Origin: an uncultured Candidatus Rokubacteria bacterium
GTDB taxonomy: Bacteria > Methylomirabilota > Methylomirabilia > Rokubacteriales > DASRDR01
NCBI GenBank assembly: GCA_963749975.1
Contig: CAVVOZ010000009.1
Location: forward strand, 8,923 to 72,922
Direction: 5' to 3'
DNA: 64,000 nt
The notes beneath the pieces are model-generated. The model did not search any database, was not told the DNA's origin, and saw only the letters and a list, made by a program, of their open reading frames with translations. Position 1 is the stretch's first letter. The number at the start of each line of letters is the position of its first letter. The position numbers were made by a program, and so were the translations under genes. Shown one piece after another: positions 3,145 to 57,357 of this stretch.

Positions 3145-5188
3145 GTGTACCGGATCGGGATCGACGTCGGCGGTACCTTCACGGACCTGGTCGCCGTGGA
3201 CGAGCGCGGGCGCGTGACCCTCGCGAAGGCGGCCTCGACCCCGCAGGATCAGTCCCTCGGCGTCATGGAGGGGCTCGAGCCTCCTGGCCGCGGCGCTCGG
3301 CTGCGACCGGGCGGCCCTCCTCCGCGACACCGAGCGCATCGTCCACGGGACGACGGTCGCGACCAACGCCCTCCTCGAGCGCAAGGGGGCGCGGGTCGGG
3401 CTCCTCACGACCGCCGGCCACCGCGACGTGATCGAGATGCGGGAGGGGCTCAAGGACGACCGGTACAACCTCCGCATGGCGCCGCCGGAGCCGCTCGTGC
3501 CGCGCGCGCGGCGGCTCGGCATCCGCGAGCGCATGCGCGCCGACGGTCGAGTGGAGACGCCGCTCGATCCCCGCGCCCTCGACCGGGCCATCGCCGACCT
3601 CCGGCGCGCCGGCGTCGAGGCGGTGGCCGTCTGCTACCTGCACGCCTACCGGGACGCGCGGCACGAGCGGGCGACCGAGCGCGCCCTCCGCCGGGCGCTG
3701 CCGGGCGCCTACATCTCGCTCTCCTCGGAGGTCCTGCCCCAGATCAAGGAGTACGAGCGGGTCTGCACGACCGTCGTGAACGCCTACGTCGGACCCGCCC
3801 TCGCGCGCTACCTCTCGCGCCTGGCCGAGCGCCTCGTCCAGACCGGGTACGCGGGGCCCGTGCTCATCATCCAGTCCCACGGCGGCGTGGCCCCGGTTGC
3901 CGACGCCGTGCGCCTCGCCGCCGGGGCGGTCCTGTCCGGACCCGCGGGTGGCGTCGCGGGGAGCCGCTACTGCGCGCGCCTCCTCGGCGAGGGCAATCTG
4001 ATCCCCTTCGACATGGGCGGGACGAGCACCGACATCTCGCTCGTCGAGCACGGCGAGGCGCACCTCTCGCCGGACCGGGCGGTCGCGGGCCAGAAGGTGG
4101 CGCTCCCCAGCCTCGACATCGTGTCGATCGGCGCGGGCGGCGGGTCGATCGCCCGCGTGGACGCCGGCGGCACGCTCCGGGTCGGGCCGGAGAGCGCGGG
4201 CGCCGAGCCGGGCCCAGCGTGCTACGGCAAGGGCGGCACGGCCGCCACCGTGACGGACGCGAACCTGGTCCTGGGCTATCTCGATCCCGGGAACTTCCTG
4301 GGCGGCCGGACACAGCTCGACCTCGGTGCCGCGCAGCGGGCCGTGGACGCGATCGCGGAGCGGCTCGGCACCGAGCGGATGGTCGCGGCCGAGGGCATCC
4401 ACCGGGTCATCAACACGGTGATGGCCGAGGGCATCCGTGTCGTGTCGGTGCGGCGGGGCGTCGATCCCCGGCGGTTCGCGCTGCTCGCCTTCGGCGGGGC
4501 CGCCGCCCTCCACGTGACCGACGTGGCCCGGCGTCTCGAGATCGGGCGCGTCGTCGTGCCGCGGGTCGCGGCCGTGCTCTCGGCCTGGGGGATGCTGGCC
4601 ACCGATCTCCGGTACGAGGCGGTGCGGACCCACATCGGGGACGCGCGACGGGTCGGCGCGGCGCAGCTCCGCCAGGTGTTCGCCGCGATGGAGACCGAGG
4701 GGCGGCGGCGCCTGGCCGAGGCCTTCTCGGGGCCGGTGCGCATCCAGCGCGCCGTGGACATGCGCTACGGCGAGCAGATCTTCGAGGTCAACGTCTCGCT
4801 GGGGGACGTCGACCTCGAGGCGCCCGACGCGATGGCGGAGATCGTCGCGCGCTTCCACAAGCGCCACGAGGAGCTGTACACCTACGCGGCGCCGGACCAG
4901 GAAGTCGTCCTCGTCAACGCGCGCCTGGCGGTGGTGGGAGAGCTGCCGGCGTTGCCCGAGGAGCCCGCGCTTCCCGCGCGGCCGCCCGCGGCGCCCCGCA
5001 GCCGGCGGCGCGTCTACCTCGATGAGTGGCGCGAGGTGCCGGTCTACGATCTCGACGCGGTGGCTCCGGGGCAGGTGATCGCGGGGCCCGCGATCGTCGA
5101 GGCGGCGACGACGACGGCGCTCCTGCGCGCGGGCGAGCGAGCGACCGTGACGCCCCTCGGCTGGCTCGACATCCGCGTCGCGTCGTGA
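3145..5188 (+). CDS. hyuA: hydantoinase A/oxoprolinase family protein (HyuA-like); +1/-2 frameshift near 3278-3285
   Basis: GTG at 3145 gives VYRIGIDVGGTFTDLVAVDERGRV (the HyuA N-terminal motif) in frame 1. The rest (…LAAALGCDRAALLRDTERIVHGTTVATNALLERKG…MGGTSTDISLV…) is in frame 2, ORF 3428..5188. The frames meet at gggctcgagcctcctggcc. Confidence 0.75.
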
Positions 5189-5254
5189 CTCCACCGCGGG
5201 TCCTGTCGCCCGGCCCAGCTCCATGCGGTGGGCGCCCGATGAACGGAGGCTAGG

Positions 5255-6574
5255 ATGGGCACGAAGTTCGACGATCCCGGGTCCCAGTCCCGCGCCTTGT
5301 TCGAGCGGGCGCGGCAGGTCATCCCGGGCGGGACCTCCAAGGCGAACTTCCACGTCCACCCGCACCCGTTCTACCTCGCCGAGGGGCGCGGCTGCCGCGC
5401 GACCGACGTCGACGGGGTCGAGCGGATCGACGCGATCAACAACTTCACGGCGCTGATCCACGGTCACGCCTTCCCCCCGCTCGTCGACGCGGTCAGCCGA
5501 CAGCTCTCGCGCGGCACGGCCTTCGCTGCGTCCACGCCCGAGGAGGTCGCCCTCGCCGAGCTCCTCGTCGAGCGGGTGGCGGGTCTCGAGCGGGTCCGCT
5601 TCGGCAACTCCGGCACCGAGGCGGTGATGATGGCCATCAAGGCGGCGCGGGCCTACACGGGCCGCGACCGCATCGCCAAGTTCGAGGGGGCGTATCACGG
5701 CTACTACGACGACGTCCAGGTGAGCTACAGCTCGCGGCCCGACGACTGGGGGCCGGACGACGCGCCGGCGAGCGTGCCCTCCTCGGGCGGCGTGCCCAAG
5801 CACCGCGTGCTCGAGACGCTGGTCCTGCCCTGGAACGACCCCGACGCCTGCGAGCGGCTCGTGACGCGCCACGCTTCCGAGCTGGCGGCGGTGCTCGTGG
5901 ATCCCCTGGCGAACCGCATGGGGTTCATCCCGCCCGCGGACGGGTTCCTCGCGTTCCTCCGGCAGCTCACCCGGCAGCACGGGGTCCTCCTGGTCTTCGA
6001 CGAGATCATCTCGTTCCGCGTCGGCTACCATGGCGCCCAGGGCCGCTACGGCGGGGATCCGGATCTGACCGCCTTCGGCAAGATCATCGGGGGCGGGTTC
6101 CCCGTCGGCGCCACCGGCGGCCGCGCCGAGGTGATGGAGGTGTTCGACCCCGGAACGCGGGGACCGCGAATCGCCTCCGGAGGGACGTTCAGCGCCAACC
6201 CGGTCAGCATGACGGGCGGGCTCGCGACGATGCGCGCGATGACGCCGGCGGCGTTCGATCGCCTGGAGGCGCTCGGGGCCCGGCTGCGCGCGCGTCTCGG
6301 TGAGGTCTTCCGGGACGCCGGCGTGCCCGGCCAGGTGACCGGCGAGGGCTCTCTCTTCCGGCTCCTCTTCACCGACCGGCCGCTCCGCAGCTACCGCGAC
6401 CTCGACCAGGCGGCCGAGGCGCGCATGGAGCGGCTCTTCCTCGCGCTCCTCGATGCGGGCGTGCTGATCCACACGACGGGGCTCGGCTGCCTCTCGACCC
6501 CGATGGGCGACCGCGAGATCGAGGAGATCGCGGTCGCCGCCGAGCGGGCGCTCGGGGTCGTCGGCCGCGGCTGA
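5255..6574 (+). CDS. class III aminotransferase, glutamate-1-semialdehyde 2,1-aminomutase-like
   Basis: 439 aa: VIPGGTSKANF…GNSGTEAVMMAIKAARAYTGRDRIAKFEGAYHGY…DEIISFRVGYHGAQ…GKIIGGGFPVGATGGRAEVM…GGTFSANPVSMTGGLATM. HemL/AT-III family hallmarks including the PLP-Lys region. Confidence 0.85.
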   Translation: MGTKFDDPGSQSRALFERARQVIPGGTSKANFHVHPHPFYLAEGRGCRATDVDGVERIDAINNFTALIHGHAFPPLVDAVSRQLSRGTAFAASTPEEVALAELLVERVAGLERVRFGNSGTEAVMMAIKAARAYTGRDRIAKFEGAYHGYYDDVQVSYSSRPDDWGPDDAPASVPSSGGVPKHRVLETLVLPWNDPDACERLVTRHASELAAVLVDPLANRMGFIPPADGFLAFLRQLTRQHGVLLVFDEIISFRVGYHGAQGRYGGDPDLTAFGKIIGGGFPVGATGGRAEVMEVFDPGTRGPRIASGGTFSANPVSMTGGLATMRAMTPAAFDRLEALGARLRARLGEVFRDAGVPGQVTGEGSLFRLLFTDRPLRSYRDLDQAAEARMERLFLALLDAGVLIHTTGLGCLSTPMGDREIEEIAVAAERALGVVGRG

Positions 6575-9220
6575 CCGCGGGTCGCCGGACCACTCCAGCG
6601 GGCGCTCGATGCTGCGGTCCGACGCGACCGTGGGCCGCCTGGTGCGATCCCGCCCCGTTCACCTCGCGCTGATCGTCCTCGTGGGGGCGGTGCTCCGCCT
6701 TTGGGGCATCCTCCACGGCCTGGCCGACGGCCTCATCTATCACGCCGACGCCCACCTCGCGGTCTGGAGCGCCTGGCACCTCCACCTCGGGGGGCCGCTC
6801 CGGGCCGCCCGGTTCGGCGGGGCGCACGGGGCCCTCAGCTGGCTCGCGCTGGAAGCGACCGACCTCGTGGGGCGGGGAGTGGGCTACCCGCCGCAGTGGA
6901 GCTTCGCGCTGATCGGGAGCGTGCTCGCGCTTCTCACCGCCGTGATGGGCACGCTGACCATCCCGGCCGTGTACGTCCTGGGCGCGCGCGCCTTCGGCCC
7001 GCGGGTCGGGCTCCTGGCGGCGGCGTTCCTGGCGGTCTCGCCGCTTCACAGCTTTCACTCCCACTACCCGTACCGCGACGTCCCCATGGTGCTGGCGCTC
7101 ACGCTCACCCTGGCGGCGTGCGTGAGCCTGGCCGCGCGTCCCGGCGCCGTCGCCTACATCGGCGCCGCCGTCGGCGCGGGCCTCACGGTCGCGCTCAAGC
7201 CGGCTGGTATGGTCGTCGCGGCGCCGCTGGCCACGGCGCTCGCTCTGGCCTGGCGCCGTCGGCGGGCGCCGTGGGTGCTGATCGCGACGCTCGCCCTCCT
7301 GCTCGTGGTCCTGGTGGGAATGAGCGTGTTCCTGACGGGTCACTCGTTCTCGCCGCTCGTGGGAGTGCGCGACAGGTGGCACTTCGCCCGGAACTTCATC
7401 ACGCGACACGGACCGACAGTCACCCACGGCACGGTGCGCGCCCTCGTGCTTCTCGGGGACTGGCTGGGGTGGCCCGCGTTCCTTGCCTTTGGTGTCGGGC
7501 TCGGTGTGGCGGTCTGGCGGCGGCAGCCCGCGGACCTCGTGCTGGCGGCATTCCTCGTGCCGGCCTTCTTTGCGGCCGCCGCCATTCCGTGGATGGACGA
7601 GCGGTTCTTCGTCTACCTGGTTCCACCGGCTGCGGTCCTGCTCGCGCGCGCCCTCCTCGGCGCGGCGGAGCGCGCCAGGAGCCGGCCGCTCGCGCGGGTC
7701 GCCGTCCTCGCGGTGACGCTGGCGCTCCTGGCCGGGGACCTCGGGCGCTCGGCCTGGCAAGGCGTTCTCCTCAGCCTTCCCGACACGCGGGCTCTGGCCG
7801 GCCGCTGGTTCGAGGCCCACGTTCCACGATCGACGCGGGTGGCGATGGAGGGGTACTTTCCGCTCGGGGTCAACGAATGGCCCCAGGCACGCTTCTTCGA
7901 GCCGCGGCGTCCGCTGCCGGAGGCGCTGGCGGCCGCGGACGTCCTCGTCACGAGCTCCCTCGAGCACGATCGGTACCTCGACCCCCGGACGAGGTCCGGC
8001 CCGGCCCTCGGGGCCTTCTTTCGAGCCCTGCCGCAGGAGGCCTCGCTCATGCGGACGCTCGCCCTCGCGCCGCTCGGCTTCGCTCATCCGAGCATCGCTG
8101 TCTACGCCACGCGTCCGCCGCGCGTGGCGGGGGCCCCGGCTCTGTTCCTGCCCCGGCCCTACGACCACACCTGGAACGGCGGCGTGGCGTTTCTCGACCC
8201 CGGCCCCTACGACCGGGATGACCGCACGCTCTTCCTCGGTGGCGCGCAGGTCCACGATGTGATCCTCGCGGGGCCGGCGGCCGTCGACGAGATCGCCGTG
8301 TTCGTCGCCAACGGGCCCGAGCCGAGCCAGGTCCGCATCGAGGTGGGATGGGCGAGCCGGCGGCGTCCGCTCGAGCCGGGGGAGTGGCGCGCCGTCCACT
8401 TCCGGCCGCGCTGGTGGTGGCCGGCCCGCCCCGTCCTCTACCGGGTGACGGTGGCGCTCCTGCCCGAGGGGCGGAGCGCGCTGGTCCAGATCCGGGCCGG
8501 GGCCCGGGAGATCGGCGAGGCGTATGCGGCGTGGAGACGCTGGGACGCTGCCGTTCCCTACCTCGAGCGAACCCTGGCGGCGCGCCCCGGCGACGGCGAG
8601 CTCCTGCTCCTGCTCGGCACGGCGTACCGTCAGCTCGGCCGGGCGGAGGACGCGCGGCGCGTCGGGGCGCGGCTCGAGGCGGAGGCGCCCGGCTACACCG
8701 CCGCCGTCCGCCAGCTGGGGCAGGGCGCGGCGCGTCCCGAGACCTGGACCCCGGCGTTCGAGCGCGCGACGGGACTCGACGCCGCGCTGCTCACGCCGGC
8801 GCTCACCCGGGAGGTGCGCGTCGACGCGATCCTCGCGCAGGGCCGGCTGGGCGGCGACCCGATGACGCCCGGCGGGGTTGCCGCGGTGTTCGAGCGCGGG
8901 ATCGACCGTCCGGGCGTGGTCCTCAACGGACCACGGGGGCCCCGGCCTCTCGTGTACCTCGCCCCGGGCGCGTACCGGGCGCGGTTCACGCTTCGCGGCG
9001 GGGCGGGCAGCGCGGGCCAGGAGAGCGCGGTGCTTCGCGTCTTCGCCGAGCGCCGGCTGTTGGTGACGCGGCCGGTCACGGCGGAGGAGCTCGGCGACGG
9101 CCGGCGCGTCGTGGAGATCCCGGTGCCCTTCGTCCACGATGGACCGCCGACGCCGATGGCCGTCCAGGTCGAGGCGACGGGGCGCGGGAGCTTCGCGGTC
9201 GACCGCGTGCAGATCGAGCC
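5452..9220 (+). repeat. tandem duplication unit, copy 1 (~3.77 kb)
   Basis: Positions 5452-9220 realign with 9248-13017 at an offset of 3796-3797. Over most of the length the copies are ~99.5% identical, differing by scattered substitutions (QWSF/QWTF, YIGAA/YIDAA, HFARNF/HFAWNF, LDAG/LEAG). Confidence 0.85.
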
Positions 9221-9227: not shown

Positions 9228-9247
9228 TATAATAATAAAACTTACGG
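9221..9247. other. 27-bp AT-rich junction filler tatataatataataataaaacttacgg between the two duplication copies
   Basis: ~10% GC in a ~70% GC context. It sits exactly between the end of copy 1 (…gatcgagcc) and the start of copy 2 (gctgatcacggtcacgcc…). Confidence 0.8.
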
Positions 9248-14061
<4,814 letters not shown>

Positions 14062-16036: not shown

Positions 16037-17075
16037 GTGGGTCCCGTCGGCGTCGCGTTCGTCGTCTCGCTGGCTGTCGCGCTCGTCGCCACGCTCGCCT
16101 GCGAGCGAGTTGCCCCCCGGCTCGGGCTCGTCGTCGCGCCCCGGGCGGACCGCTGGCACCGCCGGCCCGTGGCGCTCCTCGGCGGCGTGGCGATCATGCT
16201 CGGGGTCCTGCCGGCGCTGGTCTGGGCCGGCGGCGGTCTCCGGGGTCGCCTCGCCGAGCTGACGCTCGTCGCCCTCGCGATGGGGACGGTGGGCCTCGTG
16301 GACGACGTCCGGCCGCTGCGTCCGCCGGTCAAGCTGGTGGCCCAGATCGTCCTCGCGGGCCTCCTGGTGGAGCGCGACTTCGTGCTGCGGCTCACCGGGG
16401 TGGCCGTCCTCGACGTGGTGCTGACCCTGATCTGGGTGGTCGGCATCACGAACGCGTTCAACCTGCTCGACAACATGGACGGCCTGGCTGCCGGCATGGC
16501 GGTCATCGCGGGAGGATTCCGGCTGGCCCTCTTCCTCTTCGACGGGGACCTGGCCGCGGCGACGATGACCGCAGGGTTCGTCGGGGCGGTGGTGGGCTTC
16601 CTCGTGCGGAACGCCCCGCCGGCCCGGATCTTCATGGGCGACGCGGGGAGCCTCTTCCTCGGCTTCTTCCTGAGCGGTCTCTGCCTCGTCGTCGACGCCG
16701 CGTACTACTCACGCGGGATCACCGCGGTGCTGGCGGTGCCGGTGCTGCTGGTGCTGATCCCCATCTTCGACACCACCTTCGTGACGGTCACGCGGCTCCT
16801 CCGCGGGCAGCCGGTCTCGCAGGGCGGGCGCGACCACACCTCGCACCGGCTGGTGGCGCTCGGGGGCAGCGAGGGGCGGGCCCTGGCCGTGCTCTACGGG
16901 CTGTCGATCATCGGGGGGGGCGTCGCGCTCCTCACGTACCGGGCCGATCTCGGGACGGCCGTGGTCCTCCTCCCGCTGCTCCTGGTGGGGCTGACGCTCC
17001 TCGGGATCCACCTGAGCCAGGTCGAGGTCGTGCGCGCGGGACCGGCGGCCCCCGGGCCGGGCGGCCGTCCGGCTC
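16037..17075 (+). CDS. glycosyltransferase family 4 polyprenyl-phosphate N-acetylhexosamine-1-phosphate transferase (WecA/WbpL-like); 3' end uncertain
   Basis: VGITNAFNLLDNMDGLAAG…IFMGDAGSLFLGF is the MraY/WecA family motif. There is no in-frame stop before the next gene; frame 2 stays open to 17959. The true C-terminus is near the last TM helix, so a terminal frameshift is possible. Confidence 0.7.
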
Positions 17076-17804
17076 GTGCAGGACTTCCCGTACAAGCGCG
17101 AGGTGGGATCGGTGGCCCTCGATTCGGTCCTCATCGTGGTCGCCTACTACGCGGCGTACCTCCTGCGCTTCGAGGACACATTCGCGGCCAACAAGCCCAT
17201 GCTGATCCGCACGCTGGCGCCGGTCCTCGTGTGCCAGCTCTCCGGGCTGGCCCTCTCGGGGGCGTACCGGGGGATGTGGCGATACACGGGCCTGGGGGAC
17301 GTCCTGCGGCTCGGGCGGGGGATCACGCTGGGCACCGTGGCGAGCGTCCTCTACCTCCTGTTCACGACGCGGTTCGCCGGCCTGTCGCGCGCCGTGTTCG
17401 TGCTCGACTGGGTGTTCCTCGCGATGCTGGTCGGCGCGAGCCGGGTGTCGTTCCGGCTGCTCGGCGAGGCGCTCCGGGCGCCCCGCGCGCGGCCCGGCCG
17501 GTGCTCGTCTACGGTGCGGGCGACGGCGGGGAGCTGGCGCTCCGGGAGCTCCGCAACAACGCCGCGCTCGCTCGGGACGGCGTGGGGTTCATCGACGACG
17601 ACCGGGCGAAGGCGGGCACGCGCATCCACGGGGTGCCCGTGCTGGGCCCGCTCGACGAGCTCGAGGCGCTGCTGCGGGCGCACCCGGTCGAGGAGGTCGT
17701 CGTCGCCTCGCGCAAGATCCCGACCGAGCGGCTCCGTCGCCTGGAGGCGAGCCTGCGCCGCGCACGGGGTGGTGGTGCGGCGCGCATCGATCGAACTCGA
17801 GTGA
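17076..17804 (+). CDS. membrane protein with CoA-binding Rossmann-like domain, homologous to the N-terminal module of PglF/WbpM/CapD or WbaP but lacking any catalytic domain; two frameshifts (~17485, ~17757)
   Basis: GTG 17076. VQDFPYKREVGSVALDSVLIVVAYYAAYLLRFED plus 4 TM helices are in frame 3. VLVYGAGDGGELALRELRNNAALARDGVGFIDDDRAKAGTRIHGVPVLGPLDELEALLRAHPVEEVVVASRKIPTERLRRLEA is in frame 2. The tail ACAAHGVVVRRASIELE* is back in frame 3. Confidence 0.5.
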   Translation: MQDFPYKREVGSVALDSVLIVVAYYAAYLLRFEDTFAANKPMLIRTLAPVLVCQLSGLALSGAYRGMWRYTGLGDVLRLGRGITLGTVASVLYLLFTTRFAGLSRAVFVLDWVFLAMLVGASRVSFRLLGEALRAPRARPGRCSSTVRATAGSWRSGSSATTPRSLGTAWGSSTTTGRRRARASTGCPCWARSTSSRRCCGRTRSRRSSSPRARSRPSGSVAWRRACAAHGVVVRRASIELE

Positions 17805-17876
17805 GCGTGGAGCCGCCGCCCACGCGGCGGGCGCGCGTCCGGGTCACGGGGATCGCCCCGGACACGGAGCGCGTCC
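17574..17876 (+). repeat. diverged direct repeat A (3' end of the CoA-binding-module gene plus a 35-bp segment of a UDP-sugar dehydrogenase N-terminus)
   Basis: 17574-17804 is ~85-90% identical to 20112-20342. 17842-17876 (ggtcacggggatcgccccggacacggagcgcgtcc) matches 20543-20577 with 3 mismatches. Confidence 0.7.
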
Positions 17877-17922: not shown

Positions 17923-19689
17923 TCACTCGGCGGCCCGAAACAGCTCCTCGCCGCGCTGAAGACGCAGCGCAATCTGGTACGTCTGACGCAGCGCCCGCGG
18001 GGTCGGGCTGTGCGCCGCCTGGAAGCGCGCCAGGGCGACCAACGCGCGGCGAGCGGACGCCGGACGTGCGGCCTTGAGAGCCCCATACTGGCGCAGCGCG
18101 CCCTCCAGCTCCTGGTAGTCGTGGAACCCCGCGTCCTCCCGCAGGACGGCACGGCCGAGGCTCTCGATCATCGGCCGATCGTCGCGGCCGGGCCGGAGGT
18201 AGGCGTCCACGAGGCGGCCAGCGGAGGTCACCTGCTGCTCTCGATCGAGGAGCTCCAGCAGAGCCGCCGGCGCGTCGGCCGCCCCCGGCGGGACGGCGTC
18301 GACGGGCTCCTCGTCGGGGAGGCGGGTCGGCGGCACGTTCAGGAACCGATCCAGGTAGATCCTCATCGCGGCGTGGAACAGCCCGCGCGCCAGCTCGCGC
18401 GAGGGCGCTCGGAGCAGCGCCTGGTGGAGGGCGTTGCACGAGCTGAACGTGTTGTGGACGGTGTCCCAGTCGCCGAACTCGTTGCTGGTGGGGAACCGGG
18501 CGATCCGGAGGCTGCTGGCATGCGCCACGGCCTGGCCGAGCTCCGCGAGGGCGGCTCCCCGGCGCACGGCCATGAGGAGCCCGTCGACGATGGACTGGGG
18601 CTCGTCTCCCAGCAGAACCGCCACGAGTTCGTCGAATTCACCGGCGCGCAGCGGTGCTCCGCGGCTCGCCTCGTCCTCGGCGAGCGCCCCGAGCGTCTCG
18701 AAGGCGGGCTCCAGGAGGGCGGTCAAGTCGATCGGCCGCCGCCACGCGCTCCGTTCTTCGCTTCGCTCAGCGCGACACAGGCCGCTCACGACGCTCGGCA
18801 AGATCGCCGGCGCCTCGGTCCAGTCGAGATGATCCAGGAGCTCGAAGGCCTTGACGATGAAGTCCAGCGTGTGGCCGGCCTCGACGAAGTAGTGGTCGGT
18901 GACGGCCGCGAACAGAAGATCGGCCACGGCGGCCGGCGACGCCGTCTCGATGGCCGTGCGGAGCGCCCGCTCGGCGCCGTCCGCATCGCGTACCTCCACC
19001 GCGTCCCGGAACCAGGCTTTCAGCCGGGCCGGCGGTAGGCGGGTTGTGGGCAGGGGGTCGACACCGAAGCGCGGCGGCCGTCCGGCGCAGTCCTCGGCCA
19101 CTCGCACGAGCCCGTGGAAGAGCGCGAGCGGCCGCTCGTCCGCGCCCAGCATTGGCAGGACATTCGCCATCGCGGTCAGGATGCTGAGGCCGGGGCCCCA
19201 GCCGGCGGCGCGGTAGCGGGCACCGAAGCGGGCCCCCGCGCGCACGATCTCCCGGAGATCGGCGCCTCCGGCAACGAGGGCGAGGGCGGCCTTGGCCAGC
19301 CCGAGGGCGAGCTGGTCCTCCAGCCCCTGCTCGAGCCGGCGCCGCCACTGCGCTGCCAGATTACCGTCCGGGCTCACCTCGACGAACACGTCGCCGCCTT
19401 CGATGACCGTCGGATAGGGCCGCACGTCCCCCGCGAAGGGATCCAGGGTCCCGCCCGAAGCCAGGTCGAATCGGGCGTGATGCCAGTGGCAGGTCAACAA
19501 CCCGTCACGCACCGTTCCCCGGCTGAGCGGAAAGCCCATGTGCGGGCAACGGTTGTCCACCCCCCACGCTTGGCCCTCGTGCCAGAATACAGCCACGCCG
19601 TGACCGCCGGTGCTGACGATCAAGCACCCCTTCGCCTTCAGTTCGTCGACGGAGCCCGCGCGGACCAGGCGGGACTTGGCCTCACTCAT
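17923..19689 (-). CDS. Rieske [2Fe-2S] domain protein with ~470-aa C-terminal domain of unknown function
   Basis: ATG at 19689 with a GAAGGGGGG purine tract upstream. MSEAKSRLVRAGSVDELKAKGCLIVSTGGHGVAVFWHEGQAWGVDNRCPHMGFPLSRGTVRDGLLTCHWHHARFDLASGG carries the CxH…CxxH Rieske ligands. The remainder is helical with no recognised family. The track ORF 17923..20178 over-extends the N-terminus. Confidence 0.7.
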   Translation of the reverse strand: MSEAKSRLVRAGSVDELKAKGCLIVSTGGHGVAVFWHEGQAWGVDNRCPHMGFPLSRGTVRDGLLTCHWHHARFDLASGGTLDPFAGDVRPYPTVIEGGDVFVEVSPDGNLAAQWRRRLEQGLEDQLALGLAKAALALVAGGADLREIVRAGARFGARYRAAGWGPGLSILTAMANVLPMLGADERPLALFHGLVRVAEDCAGRPPRFGVDPLPTTRLPPARLKAWFRDAVEVRDADGAERALRTAIETASPAAVADLLFAAVTDHYFVEAGHTLDFIVKAFELLDHLDWTEAPAILPSVVSGLCRAERSEERSAWRRPIDLTALLEPAFETLGALAEDEASRGAPLRAGEFDELVAVLLGDEPQSIVDGLLMAVRRGAALAELGQAVAHASSLRIARFPTSNEFGDWDTVHNTFSSCNALHQALLRAPSRELARGLFHAAMRIYLDRFLNVPPTRLPDEEPVDAVPPGAADAPAALLELLDREQQVTSAGRLVDAYLRPGRDDRPMIESLGRAVLREDAGFHDYQELEGALRQYGALKAARPASARRALVALARFQAAHSPTPRALRQTYQIALRLQRGEELFRAAE

Positions 19690-20090: not shown

Positions 20091-20111
20091 CGCACCGTCC
20101 CTGGGCGACCC

Positions 20112-20342
20112 GGGACGTGCGGGGGTTCATCGACGACGACCGCACGAAGGCGGGCACGCGCATCCACGGGGTGCCCATGCTGGGCCCGCTCGACGAACTG
20201 GAGGCGCTGCTGGGGGCGCACCCCGGTCGAGGAGGTCGTCGTCGCCTCGCGCAAGATCCCGACCGAGCGGCTGCGCCGTCTCGAGGCGACCTGCCACGCG
20301 GAGGGGGTGTTGATGGTGCGCGCCTCCGTGCGCCTCGAGTGA
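20112..20342 (+). pseudogene. diverged second copy of the 3' end of the CoA-binding-module gene (direct repeat B, part 1)
   Basis: …GFIDDDRTKAGTRIHGVPMLGPLDELEALLGAHP / VEEVVVASRKIPTERLRRLEATCHAEGVLMVRASVRLE* is split over two frames. It has no N-terminal membrane domain. Confidence 0.5.
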
Positions 20343-20414
20343 GGAGCCGGCCGCTAACGGCGAGGCCGGCGCTTCCTTGACACCCCGCAAGGGGCCGTCA
20401 ATAATGACGCGGCG

Positions 20415-20699
20415 ATGACGAACACGGCGCCCCTGGGGGCGTTGGGAGCGCGCTTAACCGACGGACGTGCGGCGATCGGTGTGGCCGGGCACGGCTACGT
20501 GGGGCTGCCCTTGGCCGTGGAGCTTGCGCGCGCAGGATTCTCGGTCACGGACATCGCTCCGGACACGGAGCGCGTCCGGAGCGCCGGCCGGGATGAGAAC
20601 CACGTCGAGTGGCTCGTGACGCACGCCCGGCTCGTGTTCGACACGCCGAACGCCACGCGCGACGTCAGAGTGGCTCGGACCAGGGTCGTCCGGCTCTGA
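20415..20699 (+). pseudogene. N-terminal remnant of a UDP-sugar 6-dehydrogenase (TviB/WbpO/Ugd family)
   Basis: IGVAGHGYVGLPLAVELARAGFSVTDIAPDTERVRSAG matches the NAD-binding N-terminus (GxGYVGL…) of UDP-sugar dehydrogenases. It degenerates after ~60 codons and contains repeat B part 2 (20543-20577). Confidence 0.45.
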
Positions 20700-20716: not shown

Positions 20717-21689
20717 GTGCGAGCGCTGGTGACGGGCGGGGCCGGGTTCATCGGGTCGCACCTCACGGAGGCGCTGCTCGCGGCCGGCCGCGAGGTGGTC
20801 GTCCTGGATGACCTCTCGACGGGGCAACTCGGGAACCTAGCGGGCGTGGCGGGTCACCCCCGTCTCGAGGTGGTCGCGGGGTCGGTCACCGACGAGACCC
20901 TCGTGCGGAAACTCGTGACCGGAGCCGACCTGGTCTACCACCTGGCGGCCGCGGTCGGCGTGCGGCTGATCCTCGATCGGCCGGTGGCGACGATCGAGAC
21001 CAACATCATGGGGACCGAGACCATCCTCCGGGCGGCGCTCGAGGGGCGGCCGCGCGTGGTCCTGGCTTCCACGTCCGAGGTCTATGGCAAGAACGACCGC
21101 GTGCCCCTCTCCGAGGACGACGACCGGCTTCTCGGGCCCACGACGAAGAGCCGCTGGAGCTACGCGTGCTCGAAGGCGATCGATGAGTTCCTAGGGCTGG
21201 CGTACCACCGCGAGCACGGGCTGCCCGTCACCATCGTCCGCTTCTTCAACACGATCGGACCCCGCCAGACGGGCCGGTACGGCATGGTGGTCCCGCGCTT
21301 CGTGCGCCAGGCGCTCGACGGAGGTCCGATCACGGTCTACGGCGACGGCTGCCAGTCCCGGTGCTTCACGGACGTGGAGGACACCGTGCGCGCGACGATC
21401 GCGCTCTCGCTGGCCCCCGCGGCGGTCGGCGAGGTGTTCAACGTGGGGACCACGCACGAGCTGACGATCCGGACGCTCGCCGAGCGCGTGCGCGCGCTGG
21501 CAGGCAGTGACTCACCGATCGTGCTCGTGCCGTACGACGAGGCTTACCAGCCGGGGTTCGAGGACCTGCACCGGCGCGTGCCGGACATCCGGAAGGCGGA
21601 GCGCGTGGTCGGCTACCGGCCCCGCGTGCCGCTCGACGAGACCCTCCAGCGTGTGATCGGCCATCTCCGCGAGCACCGGCCGCAGCTAG
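20717..21689 (+). CDS. NAD-dependent epimerase/dehydratase (TviC/WbpP/UXS-like extended SDR); 3' end uncertain
   Basis: GTG 20717. [36 protein letters not shown]…ASTSEVYG…YACSK…FFNTIGPRQ…GDGCQSRCFTDVED. Homology ends near …LQRVIGHLREHRPQ, but the frame has no stop until 21991. TAG at 21687-21689 is in the adjacent frame, suggesting a terminal indel. Confidence 0.7.
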
Positions 21690-22584: not shown

Positions 22585-22594
22585 CGCCCGGCGT

Positions 22595-23224
22595 CTAAGG
22601 CACGGCGACGCCGAACGCCCGCTCGAAGAGCGACCCCACGAGCCACCCGACCAGGGCGGAGCCCAGCGCGACGGAGGCGAACTCGAGGCCGGACCGCAGG
22701 AGGGGGCGGCCGGTGAGGATCCCCTTCAAAATACCCACGCCCAGGAGCACCGCGACCGAGAGCGCCCAGGAGAGGGGCAGGGCGAGCCAGCCCCCCAGCA
22801 GCACGAGGGGGGCGAGGGGAATGGCGGCACCGATGACGAAGGAGAGAAACATCACGACGCCAGCCTTCACCGGCTGGGAGATGTTGGCCGATCCGAGTCC
22901 GAGCACCTTCTCCTGGACCGTGCGGACCAGGAGCTCCCGGTGCCGGGAGAAGATCTGGACGACGCGATACGCCGAGGGGCGGTCGAGCCCTTCCCCGACG
23001 AGTGACTCGAGAAGAGCCTCCTGCGCCAGATACGGCTGGGCTGCCGCCAGCCGTTCCTGGTCGAGCAGCTCCTTCTCGAAGATCTCCTTCTCGGTCCGTG
23101 CCCCGAGGTACGAGCCCGTCGCCATGGAGACGCCGCCCGTGATGGCCGCGGCGATGCCCGTCAGGAGCACGATCGTCCGGTTCTGGGTCGCGGCCGATAC
23201 GCCGCTCAGGAGCCCGACCGTGCT
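22595..23224 (-). CDS. VIT1/CCC1 (vacuolar iron transporter) family membrane protein, N-terminally truncated/possibly pseudogene
   Basis: …[50 protein letters not shown]…GILKGILTGRPLLRSGLEFASVALGSALVGW matches VIT TM1-TM5. The region that should encode the N-terminal cytoplasmic segment overlaps the intact 3' end of the ABC ATPase gene and does not match. The nearest internal start is GTG 23170. Confidence 0.4.
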   Translation of the reverse strand, partial: STVGLLSGVSAATQNRTIVLLTGIAAAITGGVSMATGSYLGARTEKEIFEKELLDQERLAAAQPYLAQEALLESLVGEGLDRPSAYRVVQIFSRHRELLVRTVQEKVLGLGSANISQPVKAGVVMFLSFVIGAAIPLAPLVLLGGWLALPLSWALSVAVLLGVGILKGILTGRPLLRSGLEFASVALGSALVGWLVGSLFERAFGVAVP

Positions 23225-27583: not shown

Positions 27584-29043
27584 GTGTCCTCCATGGCAGA
27601 ATCCGTTCGCGTCCGCTTCGCGCCGAGCCCGACCGGGCACCTTCACGTCGGAGGGGCGCGGACGGCGCTCTTCAACTGGCTGTTCGCCCGCCATCACGGC
27701 GGGGTCTTCCTCCTCCGGATCGAGGACACCGACCGCGACCGGTCGACCGACGAGGCGATCCAGCAGATCCTCGGCGCGATGACCTGGCTCGGGCTCGACT
27801 GGGACCCGGAGGGCCCGGAGGACGACGGCGCGTACCGCGGGTACTTCCGGCAGACCAGCCGGTTCGAGATCTACCGGGCCCACGCCGAGCGTCTCCTCGC
27901 CGAGGGCCGGGCCTACCGCTGCTACTGCACGCCGGAGGAGCTTGACGCGCGGCGGGAGGCGGCCCAGGCGCGCGGGGAGACCTTCCGCTACGACGGCCGC
28001 TGCCGCGACCTCCCGCCTCGTCCCGGCGTGCCCGCGGCGCTCCGGCTCCGGATCCCGGACGCGGGCACGACGGTCGTGCCCGATCTGATCCACGGGGACG
28101 TGACGTTCGACCGCGCCACCCTCGACGACTGGATCCTCGTCCGGTCGGACGGGACGCCGACCTACAACTTCTGCGTGGTTGTCGACGACGTCACCACGAA
28201 GATCACCCACGTGATCCGGGGCAACGACCACCTCTCGAACACGCCGAAGCAGATCCTCTGCTACGAGGCGCTCGGGTACGCGCAGCCGGTGTTCGCCCAC
28301 ATCCCGATGATCCTCGGCCCGGACCGGAAGCGCCTGTCCAAGCGCCACGGGGCGACGTCCGTCCTCGCGTTCCGGGACGAGGGGTTCCTGCCCGAGGCGA
28401 TGGTGAACTACTTCGCCCGGCTCGGGTGGGCCCACGGGGACCAGGAGGTCTTCACCCGGGACGAGCTGATCCGCCTCTTCGACCTCCGGCAGGTCGGCGC
28501 CACGCCGGCGATCTTCGACCGGACGAAGCTCGAGTGGCTCAATCAGGTGTGGATGAAGCGGCTCGTCGAGGATCTGTCCGGTCGCAAGCGCCTGGCCGAG
28601 AACTTCTTCATACATCTGCAGGGGGCCGAGATTGAGAATCCGCCAATGCGCTTGGTCGAGAGCGCAGTCGTCAATCTGACGACGCGGGCGACGACGCTCG
28701 CCGCCATGGTCCCGAAGGCGCGGTTCTACTTCGAGGACCCGACGGACTACGACCCGACCGCGTTCGGGAAGCTGGTGACGCCGACGCTCGGGCCGCGCCT
28801 GGACCGGCTCCTCGCTCGCCTGACGAGCCTCGAGCCCTGGGACGGAGACCGAGCTCGAGGGCGCGTGCCGGCAGCTCGTCGGTGAGCTCGGTGTGAAGCT
28901 GGTCGATCTCGCGCAACCGATCCGCCTCGCGCTGACGGGCGAGACCGCGAGCCCCCCCATCTTCGGGATCATGGCCGACCTGGGATCGGGAGACGGCGCT
29001 GCGCCGCCTCCGGGCGTTCCGGGCTCGCGTGCCGCGGGCGTAG
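27584..29043 (+). CDS. gltX: glutamate--tRNA ligase; two frameshifts near 3' end (~28850, ~28988)
   Basis: HIGH motif PSPTGHLHVGGARTALFNW and KMSKS motif KLSKRHG. The C-terminus continues in frame 3 (TELEGACRQLVGELGVKLVDLAQPIRLALTGETASPPIFGIMADLG), then frame 1 (RETALRRLRAFRARVPRA*), with TAG at 29041-29043. Confidence 0.85.
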
Positions 29044-41639: not shown

Positions 41640-43356
41640 ATGACCGACCGCGTCATCCCGGCCAGCGCTCCGGCCGGGGCTCCGGGCGACCCTGCGATCG
41701 AGCCCAGCGTTCGCATCCTCCCGCTCGGCGGCCTCGGGGAGATCGGTCTCAACATGATGCTGCTCGAGTCGGGCGAGGATCTCCTGGCCGTCGACTGCGG
41801 GCTCATGTTCCCGGACGACGAGATGCCCGGGGTGGACTACGTCATCCCGGACTTCTCGTACCTCCTGGCGAGGCGCGAGCAGGTGCGCGGGGTCATCCTC
41901 ACCCACGCCCACGAGGACCACATCGGGGCGCTCCCGTACCTCCTGCGCGAGCTCGACGTCCCGGTGTACGGGCCCCGGATGGCGCTCGCCCTGGCCGGCG
42001 AGCGCCTGCGCGAGCACGGCCTCCTGGACCGCGCCCGGCTCGTTCCGGTCGAGCCCCGGCGCGCGTTCGACGTCGGCGGCTTCCGGGTGGAGCCGATCCG
42101 GGTGACCCACTCGGTCGTCGACGGCCTCGGCTACGGCATCGAGACGCCGGTCGGCACCCTCGTCCACACGGGAGACTTCAAGTTCGATTCGAACCCGATC
42201 GACGGCGAGCGCTCGGACTATCATCGCCTCGCCGAGCTCGGCGAGCGCGGCGTCCTCTGCCTGATGGCCGACTCCACGAACGTCGACCGGCCGGGCACCA
42301 CGCCGTCCGAGCACGAGGTCGGGCGCGCGCTGGGCGACCGGTTTCGCCGCGCCCCCGGGCGCGTCATCGTCGCGACCTTCGCCTCGCACGTCCACCGCAT
42401 CCAGCAGGTCCTCGACCTCGCCGCCACCTTCGGGCGCAAGGTCGCGCTCCTCGGGCGGAGCATGGAGACCAACGTGCGCCTGGCCGCGGAGCTGGGCTAC
42501 CTCCGCGTGCCCGACGGGACGCTCCTGTCCCTCGAGGACCTGTCGGCGCTGCCGCCCTACCGACAGGTGATCATCTCCACGGGGAGCCAGGGCGAGCCGA
42601 ACTCGGCCTTGGCCCTCATGGCGGCCGCGGAGCACAAGTACCTGCGCGTGGGCGAGGGTGACCTCGTGATCCTCTCCGCCCGCGTCATTCCGGGCCACGA
42701 GCGCACGGTCACGCGCGTGGTCAACCAGCTCCTCCGCCAGGGCGCCGAGGTCCTGTGGGAGGAGGTGGCGTTCGTCCACGTCTCGGGCCACGCGTCGCAG
42801 GACGAGCTCCGGCTCATGCTGAGCCTCGTCCGGCCGCAGTTCTTCATCCCGGTCCACGGCGAGTACCGGCACCTCCTGGCCCACGGCCGCCTGGCGCAGG
42901 AGGTGGGGCTCCCGGCCGAGCACGTCTTCGTCGTCGAGGACGGGCAGGGGCTCGAGCTCACCAAGACCGGCGCGCGCGCGCTCGAGCGCGTTCCCCTCGC
43001 CCGCGTGCTGGTCGACGGGAAAGGGGTCGGCGACGTGGGGCCGGTGGTGCTCCGTGACCGCCAGCTCCTCGCCGAGGACGGGATGGTCGTCGTCGCCGTG
43101 ACCGTGGATCGCGCGCACCGGCGCGCTCGTCGCGGGGCCGGAGATCGTCTCGCGGGGCTGGGTCTACGAGCGCGAGGCCGAGGCCGTGCTGGAGGAGGCG
43201 AAGACGGCGGTCCGGGAGGCCCTCGCCGCGGAGCGGAGCGAGTCGCCGCTCGGGCGCGAGGCCCTGGTCGCTCTCCTCCGCGGCACGCTCCGCCGCTTCA
43301 TCACCCAGCGGTACGACCGGAAGCCGATCGTGCTGCCGGTGGTCCTGGACGCCTGA
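41640..43356 (+). CDS. rnj: ribonuclease J; 1-bp insertion frameshift ~43110
   Basis: …VRILPLGGLGEIGLNMMLLE…ILTHAHEDHIGALPYL… (MBL fold), …VHVSGHASQDEL… (RMMBL). The C-terminus resumes in another frame (…TGALVAGPEIVSRGWVYEREAEAVLEEAK…VVLDA*) and ends at TGA 43354-43356. Confidence 0.85.
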
Positions 43357-45618
43357 TGGCGAAGGCCCGGCCCCCCAAGCCCAAGATCGCCGCGCGGTGG
43401 CTCCGCGAGGCCCAGGGCGTCGTCGCCCTCGGGCTCGCCGCGTACCTGGGCGTCGCGCTCCTGTCCTACGACCCGGCGCTCCGCTGGGTGGACCAGGAGG
43501 CCCGCGTCGGTGTCGTGGGGCTCTGGGTGGGATGGGCGCTCTTCACGACCGTCGGCTACGCCGCCTACCTCGTTCCGGTGATGCTGATGGTGTGGGCGTT
43601 CGCGGCGTTCACGCGGCCGCTCGCCGTGGGGACGCTCTCGATCTCGCGTCGGGGCCGCGCTCGGGCTCCTGGCCGTCACGGGACTCCTGGCCCAGCTCTC
43701 GGGGCCGGTGCGCGGCGTCTGGCTCCACCGGGGCGGGTGGCTCGGCTGGGCCGTGGCGGGGACGCTCCGCCGCACCCTGGGTGACGTGGGCGCGCTGGTG
43801 TTGCTCCTCACGCTCATGGCGGTCGCGGGCCTGTGCATCACCCAGGCATCCTACGCGGGCCTCTCGCGGGCATTGATCACCCGCCTGTCCGGGCTCGCGC
43901 GTCTCGGCCGGGGGCGCCGGCCGGCGGCTCGCGCCGCGGCCCCCGCCGCGCCGGCCCCGGTCGTCGTCGAGCCGCGTCCGGCGCCGCCGCCGCCCGCCAT
44001 CGCGCTGCCCCCCGAGCTGCCGCCGCCGGTGGCCGCGGAGCGCCTGCCGGACCGCGCGCGCGCCCGGAGCGAGGAGCGGCCGCGGCCATCGGCGGACCGG
44101 GCGGCGGCGGGCGAGGAGCGGCCCCGCTCGGCGGAGGCCCGCCGCGCGAAGCAGGAGATCTTCGGGTTCGCCCGCCCCGGCGCCACGTTCCAGCTGCCGC
44201 CCGTGTCGCTCCTCAAGGCGCCGGTGGCAGGAGAGCGTCGGCGCACCGAGAGCGAGGAGGAGCTCCGCCAGAACGCCGAGCACCTCCGGAAGCGGCTCGA
44301 GGACTTCGGGGTCAAGGGGCACATCGCGCGGATCAACCCGGGGCCGGTCATCACGGGGTACGAGTTCGAGCCGGGGCCCGGGATCAAGGTGAACCAGGTG
44401 GTGAACCTGGCGGACGACCTCGCGCTCGCGATGAAGGCCGGCGCGGTCCGCGTCTTCGGGCCGGTGCCCGGGCGGGGGAGCGTCGCCATCGAGGTGCCGA
44501 ATGCCGAGCCCTCCACCGTGTCCCTCCGCGAGATCCTCCTCTCGAAGGAGTTCAAGGAGTCGAAGGCCCCGCTGGCCCTCGCGCTCGGGCGCGACGCGAT
44601 CGGCCAGCCGGCCGTCGCGGACCTCGCGTCGATGCCGCACCTCCTCGTCGCCGGGGCGACGGGGGCGGGCAAGTCGGCCGGGCTCAACGCGATGATCTGC
44701 TCGATCCTCTTCCGCCGCACCCCCGCCGAGGCGCGCCTCCTCATGATCGATCCGAAGCGCCTGGAGCTCGGGATGTACGAGGGGATCCCGCACCTCCTGG
44801 CGCCGGTCGTGACCGATGCCAAGGAAGCCGCCTCCCGCCTCCGGTGGATCGTCGGCCGGATGGACGATCGCTACAAGCTCCTCGCGGAGAAGTCGGTCCG
44901 GAACATCGAAGGCTACAACCAGGCGGTCGAGCCGGCCGAGCGCCTGCCCTACTGGATCATCATCGTGGACGAGCTGGCCGACCTGATGATGGTCTCGGCC
45001 GGGGAGGTGGAGACCTCGCTCGCGCGGCTGGCACAGATCGCCCGCGCGGTGGGGATCCACCTGATCATCGCGACGCAGCGCCCCTCGGTCGACGTGATCA
45101 CGGGTCTCATCAAGGCGAACTTCCCGGCGCGGATCGCCTTCCAGGCGGCGTCGAAGGTGGACTCGCGCACGATCCTCGACCAGAACGGCGCCGAGCAGCT
45201 CATCGGCCGCGGCGACATGCTCTTCGTGCCGCCGGCCACCTCCCGCCCGGTCCGGATCCACGGGGCGTGGGTCTCGGAGCCGGAGGTCCGCGAGGTGGTC
45301 CGCTTCCTCAAGGAGCAGGGCCAGGCGGTCTTCGAGGAGGGCCTGGTCAAGCCCATCCGCGACGAGCGGGGCGGCAACGGGGGCGGCGGCGAGGACGACC
45401 GCGACGACACCTACTGGCGCGCGGTCGAGCTGATCGTGAGCCAGAAGCAGGCGTCGATCAGCTTCATCCAGCGCCGCATGGGGCTCGGCTACCCGAAGGC
45501 GGCGCGCTTCATCGACCTCATGGAGCAGGATCGCATCATCGGTCCCGGCGACGGCGCCAAGCCGCGCCAGATCCTCGTCGGTCCCGAGTACCTGCTGCGC
45601 CGCTCCGGCTCCCACTGA
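43356..45618 (+). CDS. ftsK: DNA translocase FtsK; 1-bp deletion frameshift ~43648
   Basis: ATG 43356, overlapping the rnj stop as TGATG. N-terminal TM region, Pro/Ala-rich linker, then …LVAGATGAGKSAGLNAMI… (Walker A) …IIVDELADLMMV… (Walker B) and the C-terminal gamma domain …YWRAVELIVSQKQASISFIQRRMGLGYPKAARFID…. Confidence 0.85.
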
Positions 45619-47745: not shown

Positions 47746-48135
47746 CCGAGGGGAGCACCGCGCGTCGAATCGCCATCTTCTCCCAGGCCCTGGCTCGGTT
47801 GGAGCAGGCCTTGAGCATCCCCGAGGATCGCCATCGTCCGGGACGCCTGCATTCAGCGCTTCGAGTTCACGTTCGAGATGGCCTGGAAGGCCATCCAGGC
47901 GCACGCTCGGGTCCAGGGTATTCCGTGCGTGTCCCCTCGGGATTGCCTTCGCACGGCCTTTCGGCTCGGCCTCGTGGAGGACGACCCCGCGTGGATGGCG
48001 ATGGTGGAGGATCGAAATCGCACCACGCACACCTACGATGAGGCCAGCGCGCGTGCGATCTACGTCGCCCTGCCGGGCCACGCCCGGTTGCTGGCGACCC
48101 TCCTCGGCCGCTTGCGCGAACCGTCGGGGTCCTGA
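47742..48135 (+). CDS. HEPN / nucleotidyltransferase substrate-binding (HI0074-like) partner protein; frameshift ~47832
   Basis: GTG 47742 overlaps the MNT stop as GTGA. MTEGSTARRIAIFSQALARLEQALSIPEDR is in one frame. Then IVRDACIQRFEFTFEMAWKAIQAHARVQGI…WMAMVEDRNRTTHTYDEASARAIY (the R…H HEPN-like motif) is in the ORF 47878..48135 frame. Confidence 0.6.
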
Positions 48136-50612: not shown

Positions 50613-50640
50613 CGAGAGCTCCTTTCGCGTCACAGAAACC

Positions 50641-50807: not shown

Positions 50808-50829
50808 GCCTCGTAGCATCGTGCCGGCC

Positions 50830-50858: not shown

Positions 50859-50884
50859 GGGCGCCGTTCCAAGGCGGCGACGCC

Positions 50885-51772: not shown

Positions 51773-54571
<2,799 letters not shown>

Positions 54572-54616
54572 TCGAGGGAGCCGCGCGGAGCCACCGCGCG
54601 CGGCGAGGAGCGGAGC

Positions 54617-54982: not shown

Positions 54983-54986
54983 CGCG

Positions 54987-56101: not shown

Positions 56102-56552
56102 GGTCTTCCGGATCGTGGGACCGGCCCGGTGCCCTTGGCGTGCGAGCGCCCGTCCGGAGCGCTCGCGCCACGGCGAGCTTCTGGGGGGGCCGTGGTCCGC
56201 GAGGTCGAGCTCGCCTCGTAGAACGTGCCGAGATGCCGGGAGTCAACCATCAGGACGCAGTGCGAGCCCTGGAGACGGCAGGCTAACGAATCGTCCGGCA
56301 GGGGAAGCACATCGTGAGAGCGACGGGGTCCGGATCGTGACCATTCCAAGGACAGGTCGATTCTTCACCTGCTGACGAGGTTACCCCGGACCGGTCGGAC
56401 AGTGCGACGCCCACGGGCGCTCGACGGCCCAGCCCACGCAGCTCTTCGCGGGACGCCTGTCCGGTCCGCCGGCCACGGGGGGTGGAGACTTCGGGTCCCC
56501 AACCCTGGCCTCTTAGGCGACGCTAACGGGGGCTCGCGGGCTTTCCCCGACT

Positions 56553-57357
56553 GTGGCATGGTATGGCGTCATGCAGCCGCCCGCGGAGGCCCCGCCGTCC
56601 TTCTGGGATGATGTCGGGGCGAACTTCCCGTCGCTCAAGGGGGCGGTGTCCACCGCCTACTACTTCGACTGCGAGCGCTGGCTCTTCGAGACGTACCTCC
56701 CCAAGCTTCGAGACCTCGTCGTCTTCAAGACCGACCTCTGGGACGAGGCGAAGAACACCGAGATCCTGCGCTGGGCGGCCGATCGCGGCGCCCGTCCGAT
56801 GGGTGTCGACGTGTCGATCGACGTCGTGCGGGAAGCGGGCAAGGTGCTCGACGCCCATCGCCCGGGCTTCGTGGTCGGCGACGTGCGGGCGATCCCGTTC
56901 CGGGACGGCGCGGTTGACGCGGTCTACTCGATGGGAACGATCGAGCACTTCGAGGAATACGCCCAGGCGGTCCGGGAGATCTTCCGGATCCTCAAGCCCG
57001 GCGGCACGGCGATCGTCGGCGTGCCCAACAAGCTCGACCCGTTCCTCAGGCCGCTCATGGTCCACGTGCTGAACGCCGACGGGTCTGTACGGCTACGGGA
57101 TGGAGAAGTCGTTCACGCCCGGCGCCCTCCAGCGCCTGCTGGAGTCGGCCGGCTTCCGGGTCACCGCGCGGACGGGCATCCTCTTCATCCCCGGCTGGCT
57201 CCGGATGCTGGAGCTGTGGCTCTACACGCGGCGCGTCCCGGCTCACCGGCGTCATCACCTCCGGCCCGTCCGCCTGTTCGCCTGGCTGTACCGGCGGTTC
57301 CCCGCCGTCCGGCGCCACGGGTACCTGACCGTCTGCGTGGCGGAGCGCCCGGACTGA
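56553..57357 (+). CDS. class I SAM-dependent methyltransferase; 1-bp insertion frameshift ~57082
   Basis: GTG 56553. …VVGDVRAIPFRDGAVDAVYSMGTIEHFEEY…ILKPGGTAIVGVPNKLDPFLRP… The C-terminus (…GYGMEKSFTPGALQRLLESAGFRVTARTGILFIPGW…TVCVAERPD*) is in the ORF 57100..57357 frame. Confidence 0.7.

Follow-up and report, generated by a model that had tools for sequence, protein, structure and literature searches.

Single-base frameshifts across a GC-rich Rokubacteria contig as probable consensus errors

Introduction

The 64-kb stretch of DNA analyzed here (the window) belongs to contig CAVVOZ010000009.1 of GenBank assembly GCA_963749975.1, from an uncultured Candidatus Rokubacteria bacterium, and many of its otherwise conserved genes change reading frame through single-base insertions or deletions (indels). 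From left to right, the genes concerned are hyuA, the second of two tandem GT39 (PMT_2) genes, three genes of a glycan locus (a fusion gene with Glycos_transf_4 and CoA_binding_3 domains, a NAD-dependent epimerase, and a UbiA prenyltransferase), an SBP_bac_3 binding protein on the minus strand, gltX, rsmA, rnj (RNase J), ftsK, a HEPN gene, a GAF histidine kinase, a response-regulator cyclase, and a methyltransferase. The positions of the events are collected in Table 1, together with the reference sequences with which they were compared.

Sequences and Methods

The window has 73% GC throughout and contains long open stretches in all six frames, so that lists of open reading frames (ORFs) alone are uninformative here. 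Genes were placed with a plot of third-position GC and with a log-odds tracker of codon usage, for which the clearest ORFs served as the training set. Frame changes were judged with the same tracker, with tblastn using the orthologous proteins of close relatives, and by DNA alignment to near-identical references. Two of these references, L163 and L164, are identical contigs that were assembled independently.

The nearest named relatives of RNase J, GltX, and the cyclase are metagenome bins of Methylomirabilota or Candidatus Rokubacteria, and the lineage is frequent in soil and sediment metagenomes, where many intact database homologues are found. A search with the hand-corrected RNase J of the window returned P0001, an intact protein of 571 amino acids (aa) at 99% identity, and a scan of genome contigs with gltX gave, among the matches listed, relatives at 66% identity or less.

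Table 1. Frame changes and related features of the window, reference sequences, and errors private to the references (window positions unless another contig is named; inserted bases in brackets).
Feature	Position	Strand	Event or description	Compared with	Corrected length (aa)
hyuA	3277..3282	+	+1 frameshift, probably extra C at 3281, GAG[C]CTC		680
AT-only 20-mer TATATAATATAATAATAAAA	9221..9240		Joins the tandem copies; only AT-rich island in 64 kb
GT39 (PMT_2) copy 2	12912	+	Inserted C, GGA[C]GAT	Copy 1	889
Glycos_transf_4 + CoA_binding_3 fusion gene	17047	+	Inserted G	L165	588
Same gene	17477..17502	+	Net -1; aligner puts it at 17496, position approximate, context diverged
Same gene	17751	+	Inserted G, GCGA[G]CC	L162, L165
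NAD-dependent epimerase	21673	+	Inserted G, GCGA[G]CA	L082, L162, L165	323
UbiA prenyltransferase	21975	+	Inserted T, GGCG[T]GGGG	L082, L162, L165	291
SBP_bac_3 binding protein	25560	-	One base lost (C on + strand)	L162	274
Same gene	25673	-	Inserted T (+ strand)
gltX	28839..28841	+	Inserted G, GG to GGG; tblastn frame switch	L162, L165	482
gltX	28986	+	Inserted T, GGGA[T]CGGG	L162, L165
rsmA (RrnaAD)	41340	+	Inserted C (C or G) adjoining a substitution	L001	290
rnj (RNase J)	43115	+	Inserted G, GCGC[G]CACC	L001	571
ftsK	43647	+	Inserted C, CTCG[C]GTCGG	L001	753
HEPN / NTase_sub_bind gene	47828	+	Inserted T, GAGGA[T]CGCC	L001	130
GAF histidine kinase (about 51.8-54.57 kb)	53213..53215	+	Out-of-frame junction with TAG at the join
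GAF histidine kinase	53590	+	Inserted G, CCC[G]ATGCAG	L168 (alignment)
Response-regulator adenylate/guanylate cyclase	56063	+	C lost, CCCC to CCC, 10 codons ahead of the stop	L167; three-frame reading	371
S-adenosylmethionine (SAM) methyltransferase	57085	+	Inserted T, GGG[T]CTGTAC	L168 (alignment)	261
Reference L001	33040-50862		ENA ERZ25039490; 96.8% DNA identity
Reference L162	23224-38887		ENA ERZ25039502; 97.4% DNA identity
Reference L165			ENA and NCBI, ERZ25039545; DNA identity blocks of 91-97%, proteins mostly 96-99%
Reference L082			JGI, 2.2 kb; 91% DNA identity; from metagenome scan with UbiA
References L163 / L164			JGI contig / k141_-named (MEGAHIT) contig; about 88-98% protein identity
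Reference L168			JGI, 181 kb; mostly 80-96% protein identity
Private errors of L001	L001 6862, 7165		polA, 2 frameshifts
Private errors of L162	L162 11218-11975 (His_Phos)		gltX, 2; His_Phos (histidine-phosphatase) gene, 4 within 750 nt
Private errors of L165	L165 1606, 2487		asnB split; missing T (window 14201), C-run difference (window 15256)
Private errors of L166 and L167			TrpE, RecA, RimO, PgpA, and GAF kinase fragmented

Frame Changes in the Window

At each frameshift site proposed in the initial annotation we find a true frame change in an otherwise conserved gene, located to within about 25 bases. The codon-usage tracker shifts frame at or next to each of these coordinates without an intervening stop and start, and tblastn switches frame at 17049-17056, 21974/21976, 28842-28861, 28985, about 41340, about 43117, 43647/43648, 47821-47828, 53561-53589, 56072, and 57082/57083. 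Moreover, the translations on either side of the junctions continue the same protein. In hyuA, VYRIGIDVGGTFTD...MEGLE before the shift is followed by LLAAALGCDRAALL..., and in UbiA ...RPVASGRLPVGIALVA is followed by GVGVLIGTAAAAFF...; RNase J passes from ...VVVAVTVD to ...TGALVAGPEIVSRGWVYE..., while in rsmA the frame before the shift ends in ...TPRVEV and the same protein continues after it.

The wecA-like and epimerase genes had also been described as lacking in-frame stops, and each of them proves to carry one further single-base insertion. The wecA-like gene and the adjacent CoA module form one fused gene in the relatives (587 aa in L163 and L164, 534 aa in L165), and the wecA-like part lacks a stop because the G inserted at 17047 splits this gene. 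Three edits restore an ORF with both Pfam domains that comes within one residue of its orthologue. The epimerase loses its true TAG stop (21687-21689) because of the G inserted 4-5 codons ahead of it.

In total, the window contains 18 single-base events, of which 15 are insertions and three are deletions (about 17496, 25560, and 56063). They disrupt 14 of the approximately 54 genes (about 26%), a proportion that has P of about 3 x 10^-12 under a pseudogene rate of 2%, which is our own assumption. The events are mildly clustered along the window (permutation P of about 0.045), as local low-quality consensus would give, and the density of errors is highest beside the AT-only junction of the GT39 duplication.

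When one base is edited at each site, the ORFs become continuous and agree with the orthologues, with exactly the orthologue length in most genes: rnj, ftsK, rsmA, gltX, UbiA, the epimerase, the binding protein, the HEPN gene, and the methyltransferase. Thus, FtsK and RsmA recover the lengths found in L001, the methyltransferase that of L168, the epimerase that of the relatives in general, GltX that of P0137 and P0144, and the binding protein, in which the two events leave about 38 codons out of frame, that of L162 and L169. The corrected RNase J has the usual length of the closest database RNase J proteins (570-571 aa), and the corrected cyclase the modal length (370-371 aa) of its closest homologues. 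In gltX, the third frame, past 28986, reads RETALRRLRAFRARVPRA*. The C at 12912 is the sole indel between the two GT39 copies over 3017 aligned bases, and without it the ORF of copy 2 ends at 13075. In hyuA, 45 residues of the upstream frame correspond to positions 1-44 of the Hydant_A_N profile (E = 5 x 10^-12) and the longest uncorrected ORF enters the profile only at position 91; with one base removed, positions 1-174 are matched in one stretch.

Several other candidates were discarded. An apparent frame switch at 49.1 kb is the normal boundary between TrpE and TrpG. Pairs of compensating shifts seemed possible in GT39 copy 2 and in rnj, in which the wrong frame stays open as a by-product of the 73% GC, and each of these genes contains a single frameshift. 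Differences in polA (38503 and 38805) and asnB (14201 and 15256) are errors of L001 and L165, respectively, and not of the window.

Comparison with Close Relatives

The orthologues are intact in L001, L162, and L165 at every site that these contigs cover, and likewise in L082, L163, L164, and L168. Near-identical DNA (L001, L082, L162, L165, or GT39 copy 1) covers 13 of the sites, and more distant orthologues (L167 and L168) cover those at 53590, 56063, and 57085. No in-frame stop was found in the conserved genes of the window. Besides, identity remains at 93-99% downstream of the shifts, for example 98% over 656 aa in FtsK, 99% in the C-terminus of RNase J, and 93% in the HEPN gene. The disrupted genes include the single-copy housekeeping genes gltX, ftsK, rnj, and rsmA.

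The sibling assemblies have their own private frameshifts, each at places where the window is intact (Table 1). L001, L162, L165, L166, and L167 are all ENA analyses within the range ERZ25039469 to ERZ25039596, with contigs named 'contig_N', a form typical of Flye output. Counted automatically and conservatively, frame switches number 0.6-8.4 per 10 kb of coding sequence across these five siblings and the window. Errors are denser in some assemblies (L166 and L167), and L166 also contains a methyltransferase-RimO fusion of 759 aa. When L163 was queried with the proteins of the identical contig L164, no frame switch appeared; this is the sole independent control in the count, as L164 and L168 were compared only with their own proteins, and their called genes are full length. 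The k141 name suggests that L164 is a short-read assembly, an indication that applies to L164 alone among the clean contigs.

Sequence Context of the Indels

The frameshifts had been described as lying mostly in G/C homopolymers, which the alignments do not bear out. Twelve of the 16 events resolved to the base fall outside repeats, in contexts such as GGA[T]CG, CGA[G]CC, or CTCG[C]GT. A run of at least two bases changes length in only two (those at 28839 and 56063), and in two others a doublet is made from a single base. Comparison with orthologues had been expected to place most of the indels in homopolymers, and it finds a change of run length in the former two events only. There is no enrichment of the 18 sites within 5 nt of G/C runs of three or more (11 sites, against 46% of positions; P = 0.15) or directly beside such runs (6 sites, against 22%; P = 0.19). 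The homopolymer impression arises because these runs are so frequent, at 42 per kb of window. A model of homopolymer-length errors is therefore rejected by the event contexts together with the lack of enrichment near runs.

Natural indels in bacteria are more often deletions than insertions and occur mainly in repeats. An excess of 15 insertions over 3 deletions, mainly outside repeats, is the opposite of that spectrum and counts in favor of error; such a spectrum does not look biological.

Origin of the Indels

The comparative evidence as a whole supports the earlier suggestion of sequencing or assembly indels from an error-prone long-read or low-coverage metagenome assembly. We think, with a probability of about 90%, that the frameshifts arose as errors in the consensus of the deposited contig and not as mutations in the organism. 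A consensus made from few error-prone reads retains scattered one-base insertions and a smaller number of deletions, and such errors sometimes come in local bursts. Wrong frames seldom hold stops at 73% GC, and the outcome is long fused or extended ORFs instead of obvious truncations, a form in which errors slip more easily past gene calling and coding-density checks.

We infer a low read depth and an origin in Nanopore reads assembled with Flye and polished with Medaka. The Microflora Danica long-read project deposited in ENA, along with its metagenome-assembled genomes, Nanopore-only Flye assemblies treated with one Medaka round, and coding density served there as a screen for Nanopore errors (PMC12313526). 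The need for indel correction in long-read assemblies has also been pointed out (PMC9262707). As in other cases of long-read error, single-base indels break conserved genes here and each assembly has its private set. Unlike in the screen of PMC12313526, they appear as fused or extended ORFs and not as a lowered coding density; such a screen would have little power here, since at 73% GC the wrong frames are not closed by stops.

Some observations weigh against this interpretation. Any one site is only probably an error, and the hyuA event was read from the Pfam profile instead of a near-identical reference. The classic long-read signature consists of homopolymer-length changes, mostly deletions; the predominance of insertions, mostly outside homopolymers, departs from this textbook Nanopore pattern and makes the technology uncertain. 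A text search did not link the assemblies ERZ25039469-ERZ25039596 to the project of PMC12313526, which is thus a lead only. Four of the 15 insertions (17751, 21673, 28986, and 47828) fall between the A and the C of GAC, a trinucleotide found at 2.4% of positions, and this enrichment (post hoc P of about 4 x 10^-4) hints at an unexplained systematic context effect. Finally, the junction at 53215 in the GAF kinase and the remnants in the glycan locus, both described below, could be genuine structural differences.

Alternative Explanations

That a minority of the events is real, with an indel hot spot in the 3' part of gltX and the GA^C insertions located at a modification motif, seems to us unlikely. 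Two of the GA^C insertions create GATC from GGACG, and the insertion at 12912 also follows GGA. The GA^C events may reflect a systematic context effect in basecalling, perhaps tied to DNA modification, while the 3' region of gltX may be locally difficult sequence, or its events may coincide by chance.

Strain mixing, in which the contig would be a mosaic of co-occurring strains with polisher indels where haplotypes disagree, has in our opinion a very small probability. Many near-identical relatives come from the same sample series, the tandem GT39 copies differ by 0.8%, as strain variants do, with an AT-only linker of non-genomic sequence between them, and the indels at 41340, 21673, and 21975 adjoin substitutions with respect to the closest relative. 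However, at 3-4% divergence chance alone puts substitutions near many of the sites. Sequence alone cannot separate such mixing from plain low-depth error, of which it would be an artefactual variant with the same practical consequence.

Genuine pseudogenization, i.e., a strain under genome decay with the frameshifts fixed in its population, is slightly less credible still. The frameshifts do stand in the public record, the glycan locus holds true remnants common to independent assemblies, and gene content varies among close relatives, to the point that neither the ABC transporter (23.2-26.3 kb) nor the greater part of the Rieske gene is present in L165. However, decay would have inactivated four single-copy housekeeping genes together, without a nonsense codon in any conserved gene and with the downstream identity kept at the high level given above. 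It fits neither an insertion-biased spectrum that is not tied to repeats nor a different private set of broken genes in each sibling, with none in the MEGAHIT contig and the two JGI contigs. Neither mixed lesion types nor relaxed constraint past the lesions was found in the window, with possible exceptions at 20111-20343, 20415-20699, and 53215. Mycobacterium leprae and recent host-restricted bacteria have undergone reductive evolution with mass pseudogenization. The window resembles them in its high fraction of disrupted frames and differs from them in that nonsense codons are absent, conservation is not relaxed, essential genes are affected, and relatives are intact.

A minority of programmed frameshifts had also been envisaged, and programmed ribosomal frameshifting or transcriptional slippage restoring the frames in vivo can be practically dismissed, because the orthologues do not share the shift sites: at 91-99% identity, none of them is shifted at any of the sites examined. 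The prfB and dnaX genes are examples of programmed +1/-1 frameshifting, and nothing specific points to such a system here beyond the coding signal, which does continue in the new frame past each shift as it does in them; a single gene can contain as many as three shifts that differ in sign (17047, about 17496, and 17751), and inspection by eye, with no formal slippery-motif scan or RNA folding, showed neither a common motif nor a prfB-type in-frame stop at the base-resolved sites.

The GAF Kinase Junction and the Tandem GT39 Genes

The frame change in the GAF histidine kinase placed earlier at about 53230 is not a single-base indel but the junction of a gap of about 1000 residues at 53215. With the 1938-aa kinase of L168 as query (the orthologue of L001 has 2056 aa), tblastn matches residues 3-477 and then, from 53215, residues 1488-1612. 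At this point the start of one GAF module is joined directly to the end of the following one, and compared with the L168 orthologue the window lacks about 1000 residues of GAF repeats. Their loss could be either an assembly collapse or a real recombination, and we tend to read it as a collapse.

The tandem duplication consists of two units (5441-9220 and 9239-13017), each with the 3' part of an aminotransferase gene and GT39, that are 99.1% identical. The AT-only filler between them supplies the stop codon of GT39 copy 1. In the second aminotransferase copy the first 186 nt are missing and six indels occur at 9243-9381, within 140 nt past the join. In 16 of the 25 differences between the copies, A/T in copy 1 corresponds to G/C in copy 2. 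The duplication is absent from the relatives L164 and L165: in L163 and L164 one GT39 gene stands beside the epimerase, and what L165 retains of GT39 is limited to about 310 nt from its 5' end, located between aminotransferase and epimerase.

Chimeric reads and concatemers can create false tandem duplications in long-read assemblies. The near-identical units, the short non-genomic filler, the burst of indels past the join, and the relatives without duplication are all in keeping with such a misassembly; unlike in typical cases, the filler matches no adapter sequence that we can name. The duplication has the appearance of two strain variants joined by a chimeric read and would then not be biological. 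It is possible that this duplication and the loss of GAF repeats at 53215 are instead genuine strain-level rearrangements.

Other Variation in the Glycan Locus and around gltX

Real decay of the glycan locus had been considered in the initial annotation, and this probably holds for two remnants common to independent assemblies but not for the single-base events of the locus (17047, about 17496, 17751, 21673, and 21975), which behave like all the others. The first remnant, at 20111-20343, repeats the 3' end of the fusion gene (compare 17575-17806) over 233 nt and lies downstream of the Rieske gene, which is on the minus strand (17926-19689). This remnant shares 90% identity with the end of the L165 gene, has its own extra C at 20221, and is probably a real remnant or a direct repeat flanking the Rieske segment. 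The second, at 20415-20699, is a short fragment of a UDP-glucose/GDP-mannose dehydrogenase gene, of which L164 and L165 also have only fragments and L169 has the full gene; this looks like a genuine loss common to several relatives.

The locus from UbiA to the ABC transporter is, on the contigs compared, a mosaic among close relatives. We also observed, between UbiA and the ABC-transporter ATPase, a segment of about 640 nt (22590-23223) with a truncated minus-strand ORF that resembles by eye a VIT1/CCC1-type protein. The segment is absent from L082 and L162, and L165 has a similar ORF of 160 aa.

In the 3' part of gltX (28790-28850), other frameshifts occur within about 80 nt of 28839, two of them in L162 and one in L169. 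The truncated 430-aa GltX from JGI (P0217), which represents the L169 event, is not clean evidence that a gltX frameshift is real, as several other genes are split on its contig, L169.

Conclusions

The window ORF at 41640-43784 is identical to P0053, a 714-aa rnj-ftsK fusion on a 192,571-bp contig in NCBI and ENA, and the frameshifts are thus present in the public record. P0053 carries a precomputed FtsK_4TM Pfam hit, and in this form the errors are already spreading into public protein databases. Without correction, 14 of the approximately 54 genes of the window would be misannotated as truncated, fused, or lacking stops. We think that corrected sequences are needed before the GT39 duplication, the split between the wecA-like gene and the CoA module, the 'compensating' frameshifts, or the short GAF kinase are interpreted.

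In our opinion, this is a data-quality problem of low biological interest, yet an important one for annotators of the contig. Where a genome is very GC-rich, ORFs remain open despite frameshift errors, which can then escape quality screens that use coding density or ORF length. If a modification motif at GA^C were indeed derailing basecalling, these errors would indirectly reveal a methylation system of the lineage.

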